From positions 32,001 to 96,000 of the forward strand of contig JBEKHN010000006.1 in the NCBI GenBank assembly GCA_050012255.1: DNA of 64,000 nucleotides. The letters are read 5' to 3'. This document shows positions 23,426 to 34,145 of the stretch, piece after piece (position 1 is the stretch's first letter; each line of letters starts with the position of its first letter). The position numbers and the translations under genes are program-made. The notes under the pieces were generated by a model. That model had not been told where the DNA came from. It made no database searches and saw only the letters and a list, made by a program, of their open reading frames with translations. This stretch comes from Candidatus Bathyarchaeia archaeon (GTDB lineage: Archaea > Thermoproteota > Bathyarchaeia > Bathyarchaeales > Bathycorpusculaceae).

Positions 23426-24154
23426 ATGATGGTTATGGCTGATGTCTTGAAAATCATTCAGCAGAGACGGTCAATCAGGGTTCCTTTTAATCCGAATCGT
23501 CCAGTTTCCAAGGAGAACCTGAGGCAGATCCTCGAGGCGACGCGTTGGGCGCCGACGGCTCACAACATGCAGAACTTCGAAATTCTTGTCGTTGATGACA
23601 AGGAGGTTCTGGAGGAGATTGGAAAAATCAAATCCCGTGTGTCGGAAGCGTTCATCCGTGAGAACTACCAGCAGCTGTCATTCTCGGAAGAGGAGTTGCT
23701 TCAGAAGAAGGTCGGAATCCTCGGCACCAATTTTCCGCCGGATTGGAGGGATCCTGACAAGCTGGACAAGGCTGTTCGTGAGAGCACGCCTTCGCCCCTG
23801 AACCAACGCATCAGAGGTAGTCCGCTGCTGCTGATAGTGATTTATGATTCTAGGAAGAAAGCGCCTGCTTCCGAGGGGGATGTTTTGGGTTTCATTAGCC
23901 TGGGCTGTGTGATGGAGAACATGTGGCTTATGGCCCAGTCGCTTGGGATAAGCGTTCACATATTGAGTGTGTTCAGCGGAGATGCCGTGGAAAAAGAGGT
24001 GAAGCGAATTCTCAACATCCCTGAAAACATGAAGGTTGCTTTTGCCATCCGTCTGGGATACCCCGTCTCCAGGCCGGCTAAACACCTGAGAGTGCGCCGT
24101 GACATGGAAATGCTCACGCATCATAATGGGTTTGGGAACAAGGGCTTCAGTTGA
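23426..24154 (+). CDS. Nitroreductase family protein
   Basis: RRSIR, WAPTAHNMQ, ENMWLMAQSLG, LGYP. Confidence 0.88.
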   Translation: MMVMADVLKIIQQRRSIRVPFNPNRPVSKENLRQILEATRWAPTAHNMQNFEILVVDDKEVLEEIGKIKSRVSEAFIRENYQQLSFSEEELLQKKVGILGTNFPPDWRDPDKLDKAVRESTPSPLNQRIRGSPLLLIVIYDSRKKAPASEGDVLGFISLGCVMENMWLMAQSLGISVHILSVFSGDAVEKEVKRILNIPENMKVAFAIRLGYPVSRPAKHLRVRRDMEMLTHHNGFGNKGFS

Positions 24155-24184
24155 GAAAACCTTGTCTTGTTTTCGCGCGCGCTG

Positions 24185-24227
24185 GTGGACCGGTGGGGAC
24201 TTGAACCCCAGACCTCCTGAGTGCAAG
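24185..24227. repeat. att direct repeat, copy 1 (displaced 3' half of tRNA-Ala)
   Basis: GTGGACCGGTGGGGACTTGAACCCCAGACCTCCTGAGTGCAAG, identical to 32390-32432. Confidence 0.97.
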
Positions 24228-25076
24228 ATGATTAATGATGCAATATGGGAAAACTTTGGTACTTGGCTATTGAAAACACACAAACAAAGGAATGCAAAAG
24301 AAGCTCTAAGAAATGCTAAGAAGTATGCTGCAATCCTGGAAAAACCCAGCATGGCTTCACAGCTTCTAATGTTAAACAAAGACCTTAGAAGAGTAGCAAT
24401 GAGTTCACTGAGCAATCTATCCAAGTATTTAGGAGTCTATGATCAATGGAAACAGACAATAAGAAATTATGGCTTGAAATGGGAAAACACAACCAGTCTA
24501 GAAACATTTCTCAGCATTCTAAACAGCAATCTGGAAGAGACAGAAATCTGGCTTAGACAAGTCATTAAGAAGCTACCGAGTGACTACTCTACAATTTTGG
24601 TATTTGATGTCTTAACTGGATTGAGACCCAGTGAAGCAGCAATGTCATGCAAACTGATAACAGACCTTTCAAACATGAACAAGCTGGACTCGTATCTGGA
24701 TGGAGATCTAATGATGTTACAGCATTTCAGATTTCCAGACTTGTTCCTAAGGAAATCAAAGAATGCATACATATCATTCATAACCCCAGAACTGCTTCAG
24801 CTTGTTCTGAGAACAAAACCAAGTATCAAATATTCAGCAATAGACACAATGATTGGCAGACAGGGTTTCAATACCAGAACAAAGCAGTTGAGAAAACTCT
24901 ATGCAACCAGGCTGAGAAACGATTTGCCTCAAGAGCTCGTTGATTTATTGCAGGGAAGAATAAGCCAAACGATATTTATGAAATTCTACTATAAGCCTCT
25001 ACTAAGAGACATCCAACAGAAAACAATCAAAGCACTGCAACCTCTACAAATGGAACTCCTGTCTCAAATACAGTGA
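24186..25076 (+). CDS. Tyrosine integrase, C-terminal (catalytic) part int(C)
   Basis: TGLRPSEA (R), KQLRK, LLQGR, KFYY (Y); begins with the att-encoded WTGGDLNPRPPECK; in-frame ATG at 24228. Confidence 0.9.
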   Translation, partial: WTGGDLNPRPPECKMINDAIWENFGTWLLKTHKQRNAKEALRNAKKYAAILEKPSMASQLLMLNKDLRRVAMSSLSNLSKYLGVYDQWKQTIRNYGLKWENTTSLETFLSILNSNLEETEIWLRQVIKKLPSDYSTILVFDVLTGLRPSEAAMSCKLITDLSNMNKLDSYLDGDLMMLQHFRFPDLFLRKSKNAYISFITPELLQLVLRTKPSIKYSAIDTMIGRQGFNTRTKQLRKLYATRLRNDLPQELVDLLQGRISQTIFMKFYYKPLLRDIQQKTIKALQPLQMELLSQIQ

Positions 25077-25182
25077 GTCCTAGAAACCATGCTCATAAGA
25101 GACTACTGAAGCCCATCATCCAGCAGAACTCAGAGACAGAACACTCAAAGCAATATCAGAGCTAGAACAAACACTAAACTAA
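25077..25182 (+). pseudogene. Relic 3' end of a second, related integrase
   Basis: VLETMLIRDY*SPSS/AELRDRTLKAISELEQTLN* (one stop, one frameshift) aligns without gaps to the int(C) tail ISQTIFMKFYYKPLLRDIQQKTIKALQPLQMEL. Confidence 0.6.
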
Positions 25183-25279
25183 GTGTTGAAACAAACCGAA
25201 ACACTTCTCCCTCTTTTCCATGTATACAGAACTACGGTGAAAAACTTCTAGAGGGTCTTTGAAATCTTTGAAGGAAGCT

Positions 25280-25804
25280 TTAGGCTTTTGATTGTTGAAG
25301 CTGTTGTTCTCTTTTCTTCAGTTCGTTGTATAGATATTCAAACTGCTGTAGTGACCTTGGAGACTGGAACTGTTTTCTATATCCGTCTACTACCAGCTTG
25401 ATTTTTTCCCATAGAGGTATAGCTATATAGCCAAAGAGGTCGTCAACTAATCCGAGGTCTATGAGCTTTCTATTCAGAAGCACGCCTATTTGTTCGAACA
25501 TCACGTTGACTATGCTCATACCGATAATTTCTGGTGAATCAACAAACCCCGTAGTAGTAGAATAATACTTTTTCACGAATTCATCATAGTCCTTGAAATC
25601 CAAGTTGAACGTTCTTGTCAAGGCTTTCCAGAATTCTTCACTACCAAAAGTTGAGTAAATTCTCATAAGAAGGTCTGCTTGCCTTGTCTCAATTTCTGCT
25701 TGTCTCGTCTTACTCTGATGTCTTATCTCCAGAACGTAGTAGACAACCCCAACTAACACACCTGCTGCTGCCACCATTGCAGAAATCTCGGTTATGTCAA
25801 CCAT
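25280..25804 (-). CDS. N-terminally membrane-anchored protein (DUF4760-like), paralog 1
   Basis: TM SAMVAAAGVLVGVVYY; RQADLLMRIY; FEQIGVLL..IDL; FEYLYNELKKRE. Confidence 0.7.
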   Translation of the reverse strand: MVDITEISAMVAAAGVLVGVVYYVLEIRHQSKTRQAEIETRQADLLMRIYSTFGSEEFWKALTRTFNLDFKDYDEFVKKYYSTTTGFVDSPEIIGMSIVNVMFEQIGVLLNRKLIDLGLVDDLFGYIAIPLWEKIKLVVDGYRKQFQSPRSLQQFEYLYNELKKREQQLQQSKA

Positions 25805-25806
25805 TC

Positions 25807-26364
25807 TTAACACCTAGAAGACTCGTCAGGAGAATTAGAATCTAAGACTGCTGGGAGAATTGCTTTCGCCCAAGTTTTCCTTAGTTGTGGTTCTTTTCTC
25901 AGAAGCTCATTATGGAGATACTCGAATCCCGCCCCTAACACTGGTTCATTGAGTTCTCTTCTAAATCCCACTGTCAGTGGCTTGGTCTTTTCATAGATTT
26001 CCTTAATCGCTGAAACTCCAAAGACATCGTAGGTCAAGCCTAGGTCAATGTGTTTTCTGTAGAGAAGAGTGCCAACCAATTCAAAGAATCCACAAACAGT
26101 AGAGATTGCCTTGTTAATTTCTAGCCTTGCTTCGGAATGTCGTGGATAATTCTTTAGGAAGTCCTCGTAGTCTTTGAATTGCAGCCTCATGATTTTCGAG
26201 AATGCATCTTGAAATTCGTTGCTATGCAACCTTGAATACAGTCTTATGAGTAGGTCTGTCTGCTTCTGCTCGTGAAGATGCCTAAGCTCCAAAACAGTCA
26301 AGGCAACACCTATCAACACACCTATTGCTGCAACAATAGCTGAAATAGAAGGTATGTCCAACAT
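25807..26364 (-). CDS. N-terminally membrane-anchored protein (DUF4760-like), paralog 2
   Basis: Same motif set: QTDLLIRLY, FELVGTLL..IDL, FEYLHNEL. Confidence 0.7.
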   Translation of the reverse strand: MLDIPSISAIVAAIGVLIGVALTVLELRHLHEQKQTDLLIRLYSRLHSNEFQDAFSKIMRLQFKDYEDFLKNYPRHSEARLEINKAISTVCGFFELVGTLLYRKHIDLGLTYDVFGVSAIKEIYEKTKPLTVGFRRELNEPVLGAGFEYLHNELLRKEPQLRKTWAKAILPAVLDSNSPDESSRC

Positions 26365-26493
26365 CCTTGTCACCCAGAAGACAAGATTAGGTGAGATCAG
26401 TATTAAAGACTACATCATAAACCATGAAAAGAACATCAAATAGAAAAGAAGCCCAATAGTAGCTTATTATGTTAATAACAGACAGAATATTGT

Positions 26494-27036
26494 TTACTTC
26501 TTTTCAGTCCTTGTCAGTATCTTTGGTTCTTTCCACTCTTCCCTGAGGATGCTGTAGACAAAGGAATCTCTCCATTCTCCTCTCGTGAAGAAGTTTCTAC
26601 GATGTGTTCCTTCCTTCTTGAAACCAACTTTCTCTAAGACCTTCTGAGAGGCTACATTTCTAGGGTCTGTCTGAGCTTGAACACGGCCTATGTCTTTGGA
26701 GAGAAACAAGTAATCCACCATAATTTTGACAGCTTCAGAGCAGTAGCCTTTCCCCCTCTCGTTTGGCACCAAACTGTAGCCGATTTCTAGTTGCCTACCT
26801 GCAATGTGTAGGACGTAGAAATGGGCTATGAAACCAATTTTGCTTCCATCTTTCTTCTCTATTATGAATGGTTTCAGCTCGTTAGGGTTCTCGAGCATCT
26901 TTTCTATATCTGTTCTGGACCCCTGATGCAAGGGATTGTATTCACCGAAGACCTCAGGCTTGTTGAACCATTCTGCAAATAATGGCAGATCCTCTTTCTC
27001 TATAGTTCTCAGATTTACATTCTTACCTTCAAGCAA
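26494..27036 (-). CDS. GNAT acetyltransferase, RimJ/RimL type, paralog 1
   Basis: EIGY..ERGKGY..EAV, NVASQKVLEKVGFKKEG, YSILREEWKEPKILT. Confidence 0.9.
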   Translation of the reverse strand: MLEGKNVNLRTIEKEDLPLFAEWFNKPEVFGEYNPLHQGSRTDIEKMLENPNELKPFIIEKKDGSKIGFIAHFYVLHIAGRQLEIGYSLVPNERGKGYCSEAVKIMVDYLFLSKDIGRVQAQTDPRNVASQKVLEKVGFKKEGTHRRNFFTRGEWRDSFVYSILREEWKEPKILTRTEKK

Positions 27037-27347
27037 CCTCTTTCACCTTTGATTCTTGTCTTCTTGTTTCAGTTCTTATGACTTGTGGAAACATCCATGA
27101 ACGAAACACTGGCAGCGCCAAATAGCTCTATCCATGAGAACCAATCTCAGATTCCTTCTCACAAGGACTAGGCATGGATTCAATATCTCTACTATTATTT
27201 CAACGATGCTAAGAGACCTATCATTAGAGTGCCTGGTAGGCCAAAGGTAAAATACTATGCATTTTCGAAGTCACAAACTTCTAGGGAGTCCCTGAAAAGG
27301 AAAGTTCACAGAGAAAGAAAAGGAAGGAAGCTATTTTCATCAAGCTG

Positions 27348-28013
27348 TTATTTTAGCTCAAATGTATGGATAGCATCGAGTTTTGGATATTTTTTGAATA
27401 AGTGAGCGTTCACTAACTCTATGGAATTAACAGCTATTTTTCCAAACTCTGTGTCCCTCAGCTTTTCTAGGTGACTAATTAGTCTGGTGAAATCCTTATT
27501 CTTCTGAAAATGCATTATGCTGATGTGAGGCAAGAAAGGATAGTCAAATTTCCTCTCTATCATCTCGTGTATTGTTTGTAGTCTTCCAAATATTTCTTCG
27601 ATTTTGCCTCCATCATGAACCTCCACGAAGACAACATCAGGGAAAATGTTGAGTTTAGAAAGGAAAACGTCAAATCTGCTAAATGGTTGTAAGACTTCTT
27701 TCGCTTGATTGATTATTCTTTGCAGGTTCTCAATCAAAATATCGTCTTCATATTTCTCTGATTTTGCTAGGAATCCAAGTCCCATTACGGATATGTGAAA
27801 ATAGTCTTTTGGGAATGGGGCTACACAAGAAATAGTGGATAGCCTATTCTGAATTTCAACTATCTTCTCAATCAGTTCTTCATTTCTGATTCTTACATGA
27901 AAAGTCAGATATTGACTTCTTCCTTTGGTCCAATCATTGTCAATCCAATATTTCTTTACATTCAATTGGATATTCTTTCTTCTTTCCCAAACATCCCTGA
28001 ATCTGTTGTTCAT
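27348..28013 (-). CDS. 2H phosphoesterase (2'-5' RNA ligase family)
   Basis: Two HxS motifs (FHISV, PHISI). Confidence 0.8.
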   Translation of the reverse strand: MNNRFRDVWERRKNIQLNVKKYWIDNDWTKGRSQYLTFHVRIRNEELIEKIVEIQNRLSTISCVAPFPKDYFHISVMGLGFLAKSEKYEDDILIENLQRIINQAKEVLQPFSRFDVFLSKLNIFPDVVFVEVHDGGKIEEIFGRLQTIHEMIERKFDYPFLPHISIMHFQKNKDFTRLISHLEKLRDTEFGKIAVNSIELVNAHLFKKYPKLDAIHTFELK

Positions 28014-28229
28014 ATACTGAATTGATAATCCTTTTCGCCTAAAGTCTTTTTGAACTATGCAGTTCAGTTAGTGCACACTACAGCACATCAAAAACACTCA
28101 AACAACCAGAACAGTCATTCAACACTATCGCAACAATTCGACAAAACAAAATTAATCTATCCTTATGCACACACTTTCTGAACTACGATGAAAAACTTCT
28201 ACAGACCCTCTGAAATCTTTGGAGAAATG

Positions 28230-28697
28230 CTAGGTTTTTGGTTGTTGAAGCTTCTGGTCTCTTTTCTTCAGTTCATTATAGAGATACTCGAACCAAAAGC
28301 ATTTGTCTGAATGCATTTCTTTAAGTGTAGACTCGTTCTTTTCCCATACCTGTTTCACTGGTTCAGCGAACAGTTCTCTAGCCATATCTATGTCCAAGAG
28401 TTTTCTATAGAGTAACAACCCGACTTCTTCATAGTATGTGCTCATTTTAAGAAGCTCCTTCCAACCTTGTCCCTTGATATATTCATTGAAGTCTTTCTCT
28501 CCCCTGACCTTCAGTTGATACCAGTAATTCATGACCTCTTCAGTCAATATCCCTTGGTATAATCTCAAGGTAAGGTCTGTTTGCCTTGTTCTGTTCTGAT
28601 TTCTCATATCAAGTATATAGTAGACAACACCAACTAGCACACCAGCAGCAGCTACCATTGCTGAAACAGAAGTTACGTCAAACTCCATTTGTTTCAC
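28230..28697 (-). CDS. N-terminally membrane-anchored protein (DUF4760-like), paralog 3
   Basis: SAMVAAAGVLVGVVYY; RQTDLTLRLY; YEEVGLLL; FEYLYNELKKRD. Confidence 0.7.
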   Translation of the reverse strand: MKQMEFDVTSVSAMVAAAGVLVGVVYYILDMRNQNRTRQTDLTLRLYQGILTEEVMNYWYQLKVRGEKDFNEYIKGQGWKELLKMSTYYEEVGLLLYRKLLDIDMARELFAEPVKQVWEKNESTLKEMHSDKCFWFEYLYNELKKRDQKLQQPKT

Positions 28698-28818
28698 CCA
28701 AAAGACCAGATAACCCGCAATCAGTATTAAAGACTACATCACAAACCATGAAGAGAATGATTATTTAGAAAAGAAGCCTAATCTAAGCTCTATATGTTAA
28801 TAACAGACAGAATATTGT

Positions 28819-29379
28819 TTACTTCTTTTCGGTCCTTGTCAGTATCTTTGGTTCTTTCCACTCTTCTCTGAGGATGCTGTAGAGATGGTAATCGGTCCAT
28901 GCTCCTCGCACGAACAGCAGTTTTCGAATAGTCCCTTCTATCTTTAAGCCTGCTTTCTCCAAAACTTTCTGTGCCGTTTTGTTCCTTACATTTGTGCATG
29001 CTTGTATACGACCAATGTTTTTTGAGAGAAATAGGTAATCAACCATTAACTGAGTCGCTTCTGCTCCGTATCCTTTCCCTCTTTCGCTAGGAACAAAAAA
29101 GCAACCGATTTCCATCACCCCGTATGGCTGATTAATAAAATGCCAGACAAACCCCATTCTATTTCCGTCCTTCTTCTGAACTATAAACTTCTTCCACTCA
29201 ATCGAAATCGCTATGTTCGGGGGATTGTCAAAATTTTGCATCAATCCTGACTTCGAAGTCTGCTCAAATACAGGATTGCTGTATTCCCCCCAGAAATACA
29301 TGTTATTGAAGCATTCAGCTAGAAAATCAATGTCGTCTCTCTCCAAAACCCTCAGATTCACAGTCTTCCCTTCAAGCAA
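28819..29379 (-). CDS. GNAT acetyltransferase, RimJ/RimL type, paralog 2
   Basis: ERGKGYG, VLEKAG..EG, EEWKEPKILT. Confidence 0.9.
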   Translation of the reverse strand: MLEGKTVNLRVLERDDIDFLAECFNNMYFWGEYSNPVFEQTSKSGLMQNFDNPPNIAISIEWKKFIVQKKDGNRMGFVWHFINQPYGVMEIGCFFVPSERGKGYGAEATQLMVDYLFLSKNIGRIQACTNVRNKTAQKVLEKAGLKIEGTIRKLLFVRGAWTDYHLYSILREEWKEPKILTRTEKK

Positions 29380-29452
29380 ATCAAGTCACCATTCAAACCA
29401 ATTACTTTCGGTTCAGCTATAACTTTTCCGCAAAACCAAAAACTGACTATCT

Positions 29453-30004
29453 TCAAGCGGTTTTTGTCAGTATTTTTGGTTCTTTCCATTCTTCTCTTAG
29501 AATGCTGTGGAGATAGTGATCAGTCCATACTCCTCTAACGAGCGTAAGTTTTCGGATAGTCCCTTCTATTCTGAAACCTGCTTTCTCCAGAACCCTCTGT
29601 GACGCTTTGTTCCCCACGTTTGTCGTTGCTTCTATCCGAACGATGTCTTTAGAGAGAAATAGATAATCAACCATTAACTGGACTGCTTCTGTTCCATATC
29701 CTTTCCCCCTTTCGCTGGGAAGAAGAAAGTACCCGATTTCCATCGTCCCGTATGGCTGATTAGTCCTGTGATGGACAAGCCCAATTCTGGTTCCGTCCTT
29801 CTTCTGAATGATGAACATCTTTAAGCCAAGCATTTTTTGAAACTCTGTAGGATTATCAAAACTCTTCATCCATTCTGACTTCGACATCTGCTCCTCAATT
29901 GGGATGTAATCCGCACAGAAACCCCCGTCATTATGGCATCCAACCTCAAAATCAATGTCATCACTCTCAATTACCCTCAGATTCACAGTCCTACCTTCAA
30001 GCAA
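29453..30004 (-). CDS. GNAT acetyltransferase, RimJ/RimL type, paralog 3
   Basis: ERGKGYG, NKASQRVLEKAGF..EG, EEWKEPKILT. Confidence 0.9.
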   Translation of the reverse strand: MLEGRTVNLRVIESDDIDFEVGCHNDGGFCADYIPIEEQMSKSEWMKSFDNPTEFQKMLGLKMFIIQKKDGTRIGLVHHRTNQPYGTMEIGYFLLPSERGKGYGTEAVQLMVDYLFLSKDIVRIEATTNVGNKASQRVLEKAGFRIEGTIRKLTLVRGVWTDHYLHSILREEWKEPKILTKTA

Positions 30005-30079
30005 CTCAGTTCACCAAACCACAGAGTCACTTTCGGTTCAGCTATAACTTTTCCGCAAAGTAGGAGAACTGAAAAACCT

Positions 30080-30841
30080 TCAAGCTCTTTTTGTCAGTAT
30101 CTTTGGTTCTTTATCAATAACAGCTATGTATGCTGAGTCACCAGAATCTATGAATTCCCTGATCTTCCATCCTGTTCCTTTGAGTATCTCTTCCATTTCT
30201 TTCTTGGATACTATCAGGTAATCGAACCATCTGCCAACGCATTTCCTGAATCTTATTCTTACTCTTAACTGTCCTGCCATTCTGCCTTTTTTCTTGTTGA
30301 GCTTGTGATATTCCAAGTGGTCAGGATTGTCAGTCTTGTATGTGTCACGAGTACTGGCAATAATCAATCCATTCTTGGAAGTCATTCTATGAAACTTCTT
30401 CAGCAATCTTCTTGCCTTCTTGAAACTGCCAAACAGCCCAAAATTGCTTCCCATCATAATAATCGTGTCGAAGGAATTGGGCTTGAAATTCAATTCTTCA
30501 ATTGACATAACTCTTGCCCGTTTCAAGCCTCTCAACTTGCAGATTTTGATCGCAAGAGGAGAACTGTCAATTCCCAACACGTCAAAACCCATCTTCTGCA
30601 AATACGGAGAATGCCTACCAGCTCCGCAACCGATGTCCAAAACCCTTCCTTTCACGAATTCCATAGCCTTTCTATCAATGAGATCCCAATTTTCATACTC
30701 TGAAAAATAGAATCCTGGACCCTTTGGGGATGCATTAAAGTAGCCATCATCCCTTTCCACTATCTCAGAAGCTTCTTCACGTTTGTAGCAAGCCCACATC
30801 TCCTGACCAAACGTATCTTCCTCAGGCTCAAGTTTCTTCAT
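30080..30841 (-). CDS. Class I SAM-dependent methyltransferase carrying the GNAT-type KEPKILT tail
   Basis: [22 protein letters not shown]. Confidence 0.88.
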
Positions 30842-31392
30842 GTCAAATCATTGATTACATCTTTTCCTGTTTCAGTTCTTATGACTTGTGCTAATCCGAC
30901 AATTTAACATCGAAAATCATGTCCAGCCACTTTTAATGTCAAGAACAGCATGTCAAGTGGAGCACTTACGATTAAAAAAGTCTGTCTTCAGAGTTTGACC
31001 TTTGCTTTCTAGAAGTGGAAAATCCAGATATCTGGCTGTAGCAGTGTTTTAAACGGTCCTAGCAATTGGAAAAGAAACACACAAAGCAAATGGAATGCAT
31101 CTCTCATGAAGACAGAAAGAGAGAAGCAAACAAACCTTTGTACCTTGCTAGGTATGAATGAATACAATCCTTTTCTTATTAATTGAACATGTTGCACGCC
31201 CACACATGCATAGACACAATGATGTACTCCAATACAACAAGGTTCATTGAAGAAACAAACCTGATTTCCTTCTTCTTACAGAAGCTAAGCATAGACCAAT
31301 ATCTCCTATTGTTATCTCAACGATGCTAAGAAACAATCATCAGAATACCAGGTATTCGCAAGGAGGAATTCCTAGCAGCTACGATGACTGCT

Positions 31393-31767
31393 CTACCTCC
31401 ATTTATGAGGTGTAAATCTACTCTTAGGAACTGCTTTTCTGTTGTAAGAGGCTAGTCCAAACTTGTGCAATATTCTTAGCAGTATGGATGCTTGGTGCAT
31501 AATCTCTCTGTGACTAAACTCCCTGCCGTTCCAGGTTTCTTTGGTAGTAAACAACTGTCCATCCTTGATTATGAGTAATGGCTTTCCTGGATACCGATAG
31601 AATATCATGCCAGACTCATCCCATATTTCTGGAATTGCTTTAACCGACAACTCATCGAAAAGTCCTTTGATTGAATCAGCATCAAAGTTGGATAGTTTAT
31701 ACCCATAGTATCTAACTATCCTATTCTTCTGATATTCAATGGGAGTGACTAATTCTAACTCACTCAA
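31393..31767 (-). CDS. Hypothetical protein of the integrated element
   Basis: 124-aa ORF with protein-like composition, TTG start. Confidence 0.55.
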   Translation of the reverse strand: MSELELVTPIEYQKNRIVRYYGYKLSNFDADSIKGLFDELSVKAIPEIWDESGMIFYRYPGKPLLIIKDGQLFTTKETWNGREFSHREIMHQASILLRILHKFGLASYNRKAVPKSRFTPHKWR

Positions 31768-32174
31768 ATCTTGACCATTCCGAACTAAGCCTGGATTAGT
31801 ACTCGATCATTTAGAAGACATATCATACTATATCTGCTCTGTGTAGATACACAGTTAGTGCATAGGCTTTCTATGGACAAACAATGGAGATCAACATATG
31901 CAAAAGCACCCTAACTTACTCTTTATAATAGAATGACCCTCCATCACTTCTAATGTCACGTTCTAAATCGGGAGTCACATTCTGGACAGAAGCTATAGAA
32001 ACTAGCTCTCTTCTCTGTTGAAAGGATGTTTTCCTTTGTGCCTTTGTAGGTTGAAAGATGTCTTAAAGCACATCCGAGTTTTGATGGAACAAATAGAACG
32101 TATCCAGCCTCTGAAGAATGGTCTTTAAGGGTCCTTAAATTCTCTGATTGCTCGTCAGGAGGTCAGTGATTAGA

Positions 32175-32453
32175 ATGACTAAGATTGAATGCCCAGTATG
32201 TGGAATTTCTGGCTTTCTGCAAGTAAGAGGGACTAATGTGATGGTCCAACACTACCAAGGATTCAGGGATAATAGAAGAATTTACATTTACCATAGAGTT
32301 CCTTATGAACTGTTTCAGAACTTGCAAGTAAATGCAAGTAAAACTAAGCAAGTAAATGAGCCTGATTTGAACCTTATTTCTAAAATGAAGTGGACCGGTG
32401 GGGACTTGAACCCCAGACCTCCTGAGTGCAAGTCAGGCGTTCATACCAACTGA
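32175..32453 (+). CDS. Tyrosine integrase, N-terminal part int(N) with CxxC..H..H motif
   Basis: MTKIECPVCG...QH...YH; runs into the att repeat as WTGGDLNPRPPECK, the same frame as int(C). Confidence 0.8.
   Translation: MTKIECPVCGISGFLQVRGTNVMVQHYQGFRDNRRIYIYHRVPYELFQNLQVNASKTKQVNEPDLNLISKMKWTGGDLNPRPPECKSGVHTN
32390..32432. repeat. att direct repeat, copy 2 (within the intact tRNA-Ala)
   Basis: Identical to 24185-24227. Confidence 0.97.
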
Positions 32454-32464
32454 ACTACCGGCCC
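32391..32464 (-). tRNA. tRNA-Ala (anticodon TGC), CCA not encoded
   Basis: GGGCCGG acceptor with G3-U70, arm CCTGA-CT-TGC-AC-TCAGG, T-loop TTCAAGT. Confidence 0.95.
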
Positions 32465-32641
32465 GGGCTGCTTTCAGGAAAGAACCCGCGGTATCGAATT
32501 TAGAGCTTTCGGTATCATAGCTTTGGGAAGACGCGCTTCTGTGACTTATGATCGAGCCTTTCGAAACATGTGTGAAAAAAGTTTGTACTGGGATAAGAAA
32601 AAAGTTAGAATGGTCGATTCTGCAAGATCGATTAGTTTGGT

Positions 32642-32782: not shown

Positions 32783-33047
32783 ATACTATTTCAACTCCTT
32801 TGATTGGTTTGTGCAGAAATTGCTTCTTGCACGACGCTATGAAATGGACTAGCAACTTATAAAACTTGCCGTGAAGAAACAAGGCCCAACGGTGGCTTCT
32901 TCCATAATGTTAGACCATGTTTCTCAATGAACGCAGTTCATTGGGAGGCCAGCTGGAGCAGACTCCTTGTCGTATCTGGCGATCCTTCAGCATCACGTTT
33001 TTAAGCAAAGTCTTGCTACCTTAGGGTTCCCTCAAACGGTGAGGCGA

Positions 33048-34145
33048 ATGGTCGACCAAAGAATTGAAAAGCTCGCAAGACTCTGCGTCAACTACAGCGT
33101 TGACGTGAAACCTAATGAACTAGTGCTTATACAAGGAAGCGAACAGGCTTTCCCGCTGATTAACGAAATCTTCAAGGAATGCCTTCTAAGCGACGCGCAG
33201 CCGATGATCCTTGCAAACCTTGATACGCAGTACACATTCTTCAAGTACGCAAAAGAACATCAACTGAAGTTCGTTTCCCCCATTCAAAAGTTTACGATGG
33301 AAAACATAGACGTGCGCATAAGCATATTCTGTGAACCGAGCCCGAAGGGACTGTCTACCGTGGACCCGTCGAAGATCAGAACCCGCATGGCTTCTGGAAA
33401 AGAGCTAACAGAGATCTTCTACAGACGTATTGCGGAGGGCAAACTCAGATGGACTGGCTTACCTTACCCGATAAACGCTCAAGCACAAGAAGGCGACATG
33501 GCACTAAGCGAGTACGAAGACTTTGTCTACAGCAGCTGTCTAATCGGCAAGGAAGACCCGATTGCTGAATGGAAGAAAATTCATCAACAGCAGCAGAAAA
33601 TCTGCGAATTTCTAGACCAAACAAGCAAAATTCGTGTGGTGGGCGAGGACACAGACTTGACGTTCAACGCAGAGAAAAGGAAATGGATAAACTGCAGCGG
33701 AAAAGAGAACATGCCTGACGGTGAAGTGTTTACAGGACCGATCGAAAACTCGGCCAACGGAACCATAAGATTCACCTTCCCAGGAATATTCTCCAGCAGA
33801 GAAATCGAAGACATAAACCTCACATTCAAAGACGGAAGAGTAGTGAAGGCTTCAGCAGCAAAGGGTGACGATTTTCTTCAACAAACACTGAAGATAGAAG
33901 GAGCGGACCGCCTCGGTGAAACCGCGATTGGCACAAACTACGGAATAACTAGATTCACCAAAAACATGCTCTTTGACGAAAAAATGGGCGGCACGGTGCA
34001 CATGGCTCTAGGCAACTCTTACCCAGAATCAGGAGGCAAAAACAGGTCAGCAATACACTGGGACATACTGAAAGACATGAAAAAAGACGGAGAGATCTAC
34101 GCAGATAACAAGCTGTTCTACAAGAACGGCAAGTTCCTAATCTAG
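33048..34145 (+). CDS. Aminopeptidase (M29, AmpT/PepS type)
   Basis: NMPDGEVFTGP, LGETAIG, LFDEKMGGTVHMALG, SAIHWD. Confidence 0.92.
   Translation: MVDQRIEKLARLCVNYSVDVKPNELVLIQGSEQAFPLINEIFKECLLSDAQPMILANLDTQYTFFKYAKEHQLKFVSPIQKFTMENIDVRISIFCEPSPKGLSTVDPSKIRTRMASGKELTEIFYRRIAEGKLRWTGLPYPINAQAQEGDMALSEYEDFVYSSCLIGKEDPIAEWKKIHQQQQKICEFLDQTSKIRVVGEDTDLTFNAEKRKWINCSGKENMPDGEVFTGPIENSANGTIRFTFPGIFSSREIEDINLTFKDGRVVKASAAKGDDFLQQTLKIEGADRLGETAIGTNYGITRFTKNMLFDEKMGGTVHMALGNSYPESGGKNRSAIHWDILKDMKKDGEIYADNKLFYKNGKFLI

Follow-up and report, generated by a model that had tools for sequence, protein, structure and literature searches.

An eight-gene array inserted at a tRNA-Ala gene

The stretch examined here, referred to as the window, is a 64-kb segment of a Candidatus Bathyarchaeia genome (GenBank assembly GCA_050012255.1, contig JBEKHN010000006.1, positions 32,001 to 96,000), in which eight small cargo genes follow one another on the minus strand within an 8.25-kb element inserted in tRNA-Ala(UGC). 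The element is delimited by 43-bp attachment (att) repeats, carries a split SSV-type integrase and has a GC content of 39.6%, against 47.3% for the whole window. Two open reading frames (ORFs), 32148-32453 and 24099-25076, both read WTGGDLNPRPPECK in frame across the 43-bp repeat, and because the integrase halves are in frame across an att site that repeats the tRNA-Ala end, the array is the cargo of an integrated element. Pfam assigned the eight ORFs to three DUF4760 proteins, three Acetyltransf_3 GNATs, one 2_5_RNA_ligase2 (2H) phosphoesterase and one class I S-adenosylmethionine (SAM) methyltransferase (MTase). The features of the island are given below in window coordinates; contigs of the same genome (G000) are denoted by C numbers, other genomes by G numbers and surveyed loci by L numbers.

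24185-24227, no strand: attL, a 43-bp exact direct repeat, 100% identical to 32390-32432, copy of the tRNA-Ala 3' end (repeat family D12)
24228-25076, plus: C-terminal part of the split SSV-type integrase; its ORF, 24099-25076, reads through attL
25237-25264, minus: gene-end motif M4, copy 1 (sense TTTCA-N9-TAGAAGTTTTTCA, with a T-run, terminator-like), 15 nt past the DUF4760a stop (D10)
25280-25813, minus: DUF4760a (Pfam)
25807-26373, minus: DUF4760b (Pfam)
26396-26417, minus: M6, a 22-bp exact repeat ~25-45 nt before the DUF4760b start, promoter-like (sense TTTAATAC)
26468-26532, minus: identity island shared with 28793-28857 (93-100%), comprising the last ~13 GNAT1 codons (tail KEPKILTRTEKK), the stop and ~26 nt downstream
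26494-27036, minus: GNAT1 (Acetyltransf_3, Pfam)
27061-27087, minus: M2 promoter-like core before GNAT1 (sense CACAAGTCATAAGAACTGAAACA), CACAAG to start codon 51 nt (D19)
27270-27297, minus: M4 copy 2, 50 nt past the 2H stop, without the TTCATCGTAGTTC extension
27348-28013, minus: 2H phosphoesterase (2_5_RNA_ligase2, Pfam), with a paralogue of 84% amino acid (aa) identity on C1
28062-28067, minus: M1 remnant (CTGAAC half) before 2H; the C1 paralogue keeps the whole core
28188-28215, minus: M4 copy 3, 14 nt past the DUF4760c stop
28230-28697, minus: DUF4760c (Pfam 22 bits, under the 25-bit cut-off; 41% aa identity to DUF4760a)
28819-29379, minus: GNAT2 (Pfam)
29410-29434, minus: M1 core before GNAT2 (sense TTTGCGGAAAAGTTATAGCTGAACC), start codon 55 nt from core start
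29453-30004, minus: GNAT3 (Pfam); its unit, 29451-30058, recurs at 96% in G003:C176
30035-30059, minus: M1 core before GNAT3
30080-30841, minus: class I SAM MTase, the last 9 codons (EPKILTKRA, ~30083-30109) of GNAT type
30864-30890, minus: M2 core before the MTase; 30888-30891 is the recurrent 5' homology edge of the MTase unit
32148-32389, plus: N-terminal part of the integrase; its ORF, 32148-32453, enters attR in the same frame
32390-32464, minus: tRNA-Ala(UGC); attR, 32390-32432, is its 3' 43 nt

Every repeat claimed in the initial annotation was present, a repeat finder recovered the same families, and the ORF list bore out that all eight cargo genes are on the minus strand. An exact 23-mer occurs at 27065 and 30868 and an exact 22-mer at 26511, 28836 and 30091, with a one-mismatch copy at 29464; further exact pairs of 22, 38 and 31 bp lie at 26396/28720, 26468/28793 and 29404/30029, respectively, and the only exact matches to AAACTTCTA-N9-TGAAA in the window are at 25242, 27275 and 28193. 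By our own arithmetic, ~5e-7 pairs of 23 bp would be expected by chance in 8 kb, and the observed repeats are far above this figure. GNAT2, GNAT3 and a third unit with the MTase body recur with a period of 625-628 bp (28823/29451/30078), as in a tandem paralogue array, the two GNATs being ~77% identical by blastn and 72% in a global alignment. Identity between the GNAT1 and GNAT2 blocks is 93-100% in the final ~45 coding nt and the ~30 nt that follow (26466-26540), and 45-70% in the gene bodies, a profile that points to homogenised or exchanged flanks. Logan unitigs of the probable source run break at every repeat, so that the gene order across the repeats is that of the assembly.

DUF4760a and DUF4760c are 77-87% identical at both gene ends, which encode an N-terminal hydrophobic segment and a C-terminal ...YLYNELKKR..., and 10-50% identical mid-gene, the centres of the paralogues being variable. 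The sequence GCTTGAAG stands at the GNAT starts (27026-27036, 29369-29379 and 29994-30004), where it is read TTG CTT GAA GG, and in another frame (GCT TGA AG) at the stops of GNAT3 and the tailed MTase (29452-29459 and 30079-30086), which may be a coincidence or a boundary signal.

The C-terminal part of the integrase scored 22.2 bits against Phage_integr_3 (PF16795; 23.5 bits in the genome scan), under the 27-bit cut-off, and is 35% identical to the integrase on C25, which, like a second paralogue on C15, lies above that cut-off. Rfam (E ≤0.1, 24000-32600) returned only the tRNA and a sub-threshold match opposite the tRNA strand; PADLOC found no defence system, its single generic methyltransferase-domain match being that of the MTase to mad2, and NCBIfam gave generic GNAT, 2H and MTase matches only, all under cut-off.

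Promoter-like cores and gene ends shared by unrelated genes

Pieces of the island recur on nine other contigs of the same genome (blast), and the 31-bp repeat of the GNAT2/GNAT3 spacer belongs to a unit with 16 solid copies in this genome (nhmmer), which precede GNATs, a DUF4760 gene, the 2H paralogue, an HD gene, alpha/beta hydrolases and a PNP_UDP_1 phosphorylase. When up to 3 mismatches were allowed, its 25-mer TTTGCGGAAAAGTTATAGCTGAACC, termed M1, was present in 13 of the 41 genomes searched and, at 1-15 copies each, in 9 of the 10 other genomes of the genus, the reversed control giving 0 matches in all 41. In a set of 88 M1 copies drawn from the own genome and from loci fetched around pattern hits, conservation (86 copies) was limited to about -7..+24, that is ~32 nt with sharp edges, and was near zero beyond. 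An ORF of ≥100 aa started 25-150 nt downstream on the sense side of 53 of the 65 copies having ≥700 nt on both sides, and on the antisense side of 11/65; in 48 of the 53 sense copies, the start codon was 36-75 nt from the core start. Altogether, an ORF of ≥40 aa follows 78 of the 88 copies, and these ORFs form 38 clusters, the named ones including GNAT (23 members), DUF4760, another MTase family, two 2H clusters, HD and alpha/beta hydrolases, with PNP_UDP_1, ABC ATPase, dCMP deaminase, SRPBCC and creatininase as further partners.

M1 contains a TTATAG element, GGTG-like words stand ahead of the start codons, and the position and polarity of the core fit an archaeal promoter with a transcription factor B recognition element (BRE) and TATA box. 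These features are consistent with M1 being a propagated promoter core of the flexible genome. The idea that M1 is the genome-wide promoter consensus was discarded, its 13-nt TATA-like part (≤1 mismatch) having 12 occurrences, essentially the M1 copies, against 10 for the reversed control; a palindromic operator (GGTTTTGC...GCTGAACC) perceived by eye was also abandoned, with 6 of 18 position pairs complementary in >60% of copies. Twelve of the 16 own M1 copies lie in DNA under the 10th GC percentile of random positions. Eleven have no detected PF16795 integrase within ~10 kb, and only those of the window, C15 and possibly C1 are within ~10 kb of an SSV-type integrase. M1 is dispersed through the genus and M2 through the order, mostly away from integrases.

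The second core class, M2 (TTCCACAAGTCATAAGAACTGA), is a 23-27-bp repeat with the same architecture as M1, the distance from CACAAG to the start codon being 51 nt for GNAT1 and 49 nt for the MTase. We surveyed 80 metagenome loci encoding MTase relatives. In the 58 loci whose 5' end could be observed, homology to the MTase unit of the window stops 28 times at the upstream edge of M2 (30888-30891), and the upstream contexts of these 28 form 18 groups; in 14 further loci, it stops at the start codon or in the 5' untranslated region (5'UTR), and the MTase there directly adjoins another gene, frequently a GNAT. Judged from these alignments, M2 is native to the MTase family, which places GNAT1 behind an MTase-type core. 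M2 was also found before GNATs in six metagenome loci, before an AsnC-type helix-turn-helix (HTH) gene in an element on C15 and in G007:C3, and before unrelated ORFs in several genera of the order.

In another genus of the same family (G024:C6:36267-39241; L183, L196, L200 and L203), four M2 cores lie on one strand, 594-1608 bp apart, before unrelated ORFs that are mostly predicted membrane proteins. GTTCTT/AAGAAC is present in the M2 consensus. At L074:1673-1765, an M1 core lies 6 nt upstream of an M2 core before an MTase, forming tandem promoter-like cores.

The 3' ends of several genes are likewise shared. The MTase and GNAT3 both end in the GNAT tail KEPKILT, as the initial annotation had noticed for the MTase. 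For the MTase paralogues on C8 and C4, the alignment reaches no further than residue 244 of 253, and of the 57 metagenome MTase loci whose 3' end could be observed, 40 cease to match at the native stop, 7 extend through the GNAT tail and 3 go on into M1 and a GNAT. We retained 119 database MTase homologues (the truncated row P0114 was dropped), whose source name is Candidatus Bathyarchaeota; most end in ...IEK plus 1-3 residues, and 16 of the 119 carry the GNAT tail, always joined after IEK/IDK, in the forms TRTEKK and TKTA/TKRA. On this comparison, KEPKILT is foreign to the MTase family. MTases with the TRTEKK tail (L120, L142 and L145) are followed by GNAT1/GNAT2-type tail-plus-downstream DNA and then by a DUF4760 gene, and those with the TKTA tail (L075, L076 and L078) by M1 and then by a GNAT, so that MTase and GNAT occupy the same position. 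The C-termini of P0012 and P0017 (EPRDTDKG and TRDTNQD), seen from the proteins only, resemble the tail DNA in another frame, which would mean that the tail was kept as DNA and not as peptide.

M4 has the real form TTTCA-(G-rich 9-mer)-TAGAAGTTTTTCATCGTAGTTC and often lies 40-70 nt before an M2 core. With the G-rich inner part and the TTCATCGTAGTTC extension, it occurs in 16 copies, after DUF4760, 2H and at least five other ORFs, and is a putative terminator. A loose M4 pattern (1 mismatch) was rejected as a family, being no commoner than its reversed control in most genomes. The 2H gene is indeed followed by the DUF4760-type motif, as first annotated, but at 50 nt past the stop, as opposed to 14-15 nt, and without the TTCATCGTAGTTC extension.

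Two further features lie between the MTase core and the N-terminal part of the integrase:

30891-31166, minus: conserved stretch upstream of the MTase M2, without a convincing ORF; 92% in G007:C6 and ~89% in L078
31393-31767, minus: ORF of 124 aa, without a family match

The conserved stretch (~280 nt) follows a GNAT tail in L078, its differences are without 3-periodicity, and it may be a non-coding RNA or a regulatory region. A smaller sibling element on C15 (G000 C15:23506-27064; L002:3507-7065) adjoins tRNA-Asn and has the order M1-GNAT, M1-DUF4760, M4, M2-AsnC-type HTH gene, M4 and an SSV-type integrase above the Pfam cut-off. At G000 C4:85771-86630 (L008:3772-4631), an MTase paralogue of 62-66% aa identity, frameshifted into two ORFs, adjoins tRNA-Ser and is probably a decayed element. 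M29-like peptidase genes recur beside GNAT/MTase units (L001:2430-3413, L004:5826-7016, L093, L104, L114 and L115); the window has one at 32967-34145 (plus), just outside attR, with 26% identity (blastp) to a C27 ORF matching PF02073.

Breakpoints, chimeric genes and their probable origin

Chimeric genes and units found in changing contexts mark where homology begins and ends. The HD gene on C27, behind M1, starts TTG-CTT-GAG-GGC-AGG-AAT (MLEGRN, the GNAT leader) before its own Met, a fusion also present in G001, and shares ~75 nt with GNAT3, covering the core, the 5'UTR and the first codons. The 608 bp of the GNAT3 unit (29451-30058), from the CTTGAAG after the GNAT3 stop to the M1 5' edge, match G003:C176, of another species, at 96%; the G003 copy ends directly after CTTGAAG, and neither similarity beyond either edge nor a target-site duplication was detected there. 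G004:C10 has a GNAT1-DUF4760b module that matches the one in the window at 81% identity up to the start codon, exactly where homology ceases, and has M1 in place of M2. Breakpoints are thereby found inside the core (2H, which keeps only the CTGAAC half of the M1 that is complete in its C1 paralogue), at the core 5' edge (GNAT3 and MTase units), at the start codon (GNAT1 against G004:C10) and ten codons before the stop, after IEK/IDK (MTase).

The exchange of payloads between conserved flanks, as proposed in the initial annotation, is supported by these data, MTase and GNAT alternating before DUF4760 (L120, L142 and L145), but the array has more kinds of slot than the two sockets envisaged. Two outcomes that were held to speak against such exchange, namely flanks confined to one gene family and an invariant gene order, are contradicted, since the flanks accompany many unrelated families and the gene order differs among relatives. 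The integron-like system built on an SSV-type integrase, which was part of the same proposal, is not supported, the flanks being dispersed mostly away from integrases, without hairpins beyond those of shuffled controls and with variable junctions.

We consider it probable, though well short of certain, that shared promoter cores and gene ends serve as substrates for general recombination or gene conversion, which reshuffles the single-gene units, and that the products are filtered by selection. The eight cargo genes would be separate expression units, most with a short promoter-like core of the M1 or M2 class at a fixed upstream distance and several ending in a conserved sequence, which is KEPKILT (the GNAT tail) with its stop in some and the T-rich M4 in others. 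Their flanks are repeats dispersed through the lineage, set in low-GC islands before dozens of unrelated genes, and the units would reside on a family of elements that integrate in tRNA genes and on the decayed remains of such elements. Homologous recombination or gene conversion on repeats of 25-75 nt would swap units and gene bodies, with rare illegitimate joins inside ORF ends, and selection would keep those products that retain promoter and ORF, making the unit edges look sharp; sharp edges are to be expected in a compact genome because only breaks between a gene end and the next promoter spare both genes. In the window, candidate products of this process are the GNAT-tailed MTase, GNAT1 behind an MTase-type promoter, the tandem GNAT2/GNAT3 and the 2H gene with half of M1. 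The layout of the island, the spread of its flanks, the chimeric genes and their changing surroundings are observed; the promoter and terminator functions and the route of recombination are inferred.

Several points weigh against this interpretation. The promoter and terminator roles are assigned from position, polarity and TATA-like sequence only; a core of 25-32 nt at nearly 2 bits per position exceeds the usual BRE/TATA length, and no palindrome accounts for the conservation of M1. The M1 copies were gathered around motif hits, so that the copy counts are ascertained by the motif itself. A site-specific process would likewise be compatible with the sharp 5' edge that recurs in MTase units and with the clean limits of the 608-bp GNAT3 unit. 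In a quick MTase tree, from which the tail columns were left out, all tailed rows fall, scattered, inside one well-supported 57-row clade and the tail requires a minimum of 9 changes (shuffled mean 16.1, 0/500 as low), but the internal branches are mostly weak and of these changes only 2, as a lower bound, are forced by well-supported branches; the constant MTase/tail junction could reflect one old fusion instead of repeated exchange. Metagenome joints from 27090 to 28182 (2H unit skipped) and from 30016 to 30862 (MTase skipped) are short-sided (20-36 nt, 90% likeness), may come from other organisms and are no more than hints of different gene arrangements in those communities.

Among the alternatives, the one that survives best, although we regard it as unlikely, is a regulon, in which M1 and M2 would be the operator-plus-promoter of a lineage-specific regulator, such as the AsnC-type HTH protein of the sibling elements, with the sharing of cores reflecting co-regulation and the exchange of gene bodies being incidental. 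In favour of this, the core exceeds a plain BRE/TATA in both length and conservation, its distance and polarity are fixed, an AsnC-type HTH gene stands behind M2 in the C15 element and in G007:C3, and M1 is largely confined to one genus. Selection, however, cannot create identical stretches of 25-32 nt before unrelated genes, and copying or gene replacement would still be needed; homology often passes through the core into the 5'UTR and the first codons, as between HD and GNAT3, both the ORF chimeras and the 96% unit in its foreign surroundings arose by recombination, and the M1 palindrome was unsupported.

Considerably less credible is a dedicated cassette system, an integron analogue without IntI/attC, in which a site-specific recombinase (the SSV-type integrase or another) would move promoter-plus-ORF units at M1/M2 or at GCTTGAAG. 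Such a system could explain the MTase edges at 30888-30891 (28/58 loci, 18 contexts), a GNAT3 unit of 96% identity whose limits coincide exactly with the core edge and CTTGAAG, cores separating unrelated same-strand genes on C27, G008:C13 and G024:C6, the presence of GCTTGAAG at both start and stop of GNAT units, and the proximity of several arrays to tRNAs or SSV-type integrases. It is opposed by inter-gene folds no better than shuffles, by the lack of IntI, by the variable breakpoints, by the 11 of 16 own M1 copies away (~10 kb) from a detected PF16795 integrase, by the absence of a target-site duplication at the G003 unit and by the promoter-like distance and polarity of the core. We give an equally poor chance to the related view that M1/M2-bounded units form, in this lineage, a shared pool of self-expressing cassettes, moved between integrative elements and chromosomal islands by a core-recognising recombinase whose site doubles as promoter, which would make the system a functional counterpart of integrons.

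Plain tandem or segmental duplication within one island, with a single chance fusion and no wider exchange, would account for the 625-628-bp period of GNAT2, GNAT3 and the MTase 3' end and for the DUF4760-GNAT block duplicated at ~2325 bp spacing, but is very improbable given flanks that, at other places in this genome and in the genus, accompany 12 or more families named by Pfam, a tail fusion found in 16/119 database MTases and on separate contigs, and a promoter class that differs between orthologous GNAT1 modules. Just as improbable is an assembly artefact, with contigs mis-joined at short repeats common to metagenome strains: the unitigs of the probable source run do break at each repeat and the summed core depth is very high in four metagenomes, but the exact repeats (22-38 bp) are below what is generally known as typical read length, the MTase-tail-M1-GNAT junction is also present in the separate assemblies L075, L076 and L078, and comparable arrays exist in G001, a genome in one contig, where cores lie at 2031231, 2031840 and 2032449.

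If reshuffling by general recombination is the correct reading, an uncultured archaeal lineage that is abundant in sediment and peat would rewire small accessory enzymes (acetyltransferases, methyltransferases, phosphoesterases and membrane DUF4760 proteins) through a few short promoter-like cores and gene ends, and in-frame chimeric proteins would persist in nature. The island would then be an archaeal case of promoter propagation and module shuffling with breakpoints at nucleotide level, M1 and M2 would be candidate portable promoters for a group without genetic tools, and the array would serve as a warning that integron-like arrangements can arise without integron machinery.

Comparison with integrons, phage mosaics and mobile promoters

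In the SSV-type ('suicidal') integrases of archaea (PMC7253208), att lies inside the integrase ORF and insertion into a tRNA gene splits it; the present element is alike in its split integrase ORF, its tRNA-gene target and its nature as a small cryptic island. The integrase here accounts for the insertion of the island only, and nothing ties it to the internal reshuffling.

Integron cassettes are mostly promoterless. Integrons are defined, in an account that includes the archaeal ones (Ghaly et al. 2022, PMC9668308), by IntI, attI and attC sites that fold as single strands, and the present array resembles them as a same-strand series of unrelated small accessory genes, separated by repeats and variable in content. 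It differs in that the repeat lies upstream of the gene at promoter distance and the junctions are not fixed, whereas attC lies downstream of the cassette ORF. In agreement with the initial annotation, which had recognised no IntI, the integrase parts of the window had no NCBIfam match and the C15 integrase scored 17.4 bits against the 265-bit cut-off of the integron integrase model TIGR02249; the Pfam family of these integrases is SSV-type Phage_integr_3 only. Three inter-gene units and three M4 regions, each folded as DNA on either strand, showed no attC-like hairpin beyond 200 shuffles (z from -0.77 to +1.19), and the breakpoints, located at four kinds of position, did not reveal the fixed-nucleotide junction of a cassette. 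The main text of the paper on archaeal integrons (PMC9668308) has 0 occurrences of the word 'Bathyarch'. Our literature search found no description of M1/M2 cores or of such arrays in Bathyarchaeia.

Temperate phages are mosaics that exchange modules at short conserved gene-boundary sequences. The boundaries described here differ in that they resemble promoters and gene ends belonging to units of one gene each, and in that they are found in an island that is not viral and in low-GC islands of the chromosome.

Of the phenomena described so far, promoter propagation by putative mobile promoters comes closest; these are closely similar sequences upstream of non-homologous genes, within and between genomes, spread by an unknown route, with some promoters reaching into coding regions (Nijveen, Matus-Garcia & van Passel 2012, PMC3575422). 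The screen of that study, centred on bacterial groups, took sequences of ≥80% identity over ≥50 nt at -150..-50 before non-paralogous genes (PMC3575422), whereas the core found here is ~32 nt long and lies at about -55..-25, outside the formal screen. M1 and M2 would function like mobile promoters, with the differences that they are archaeal and that they come together with gene 3' ends that are likewise shared and with ORFs fused in frame.

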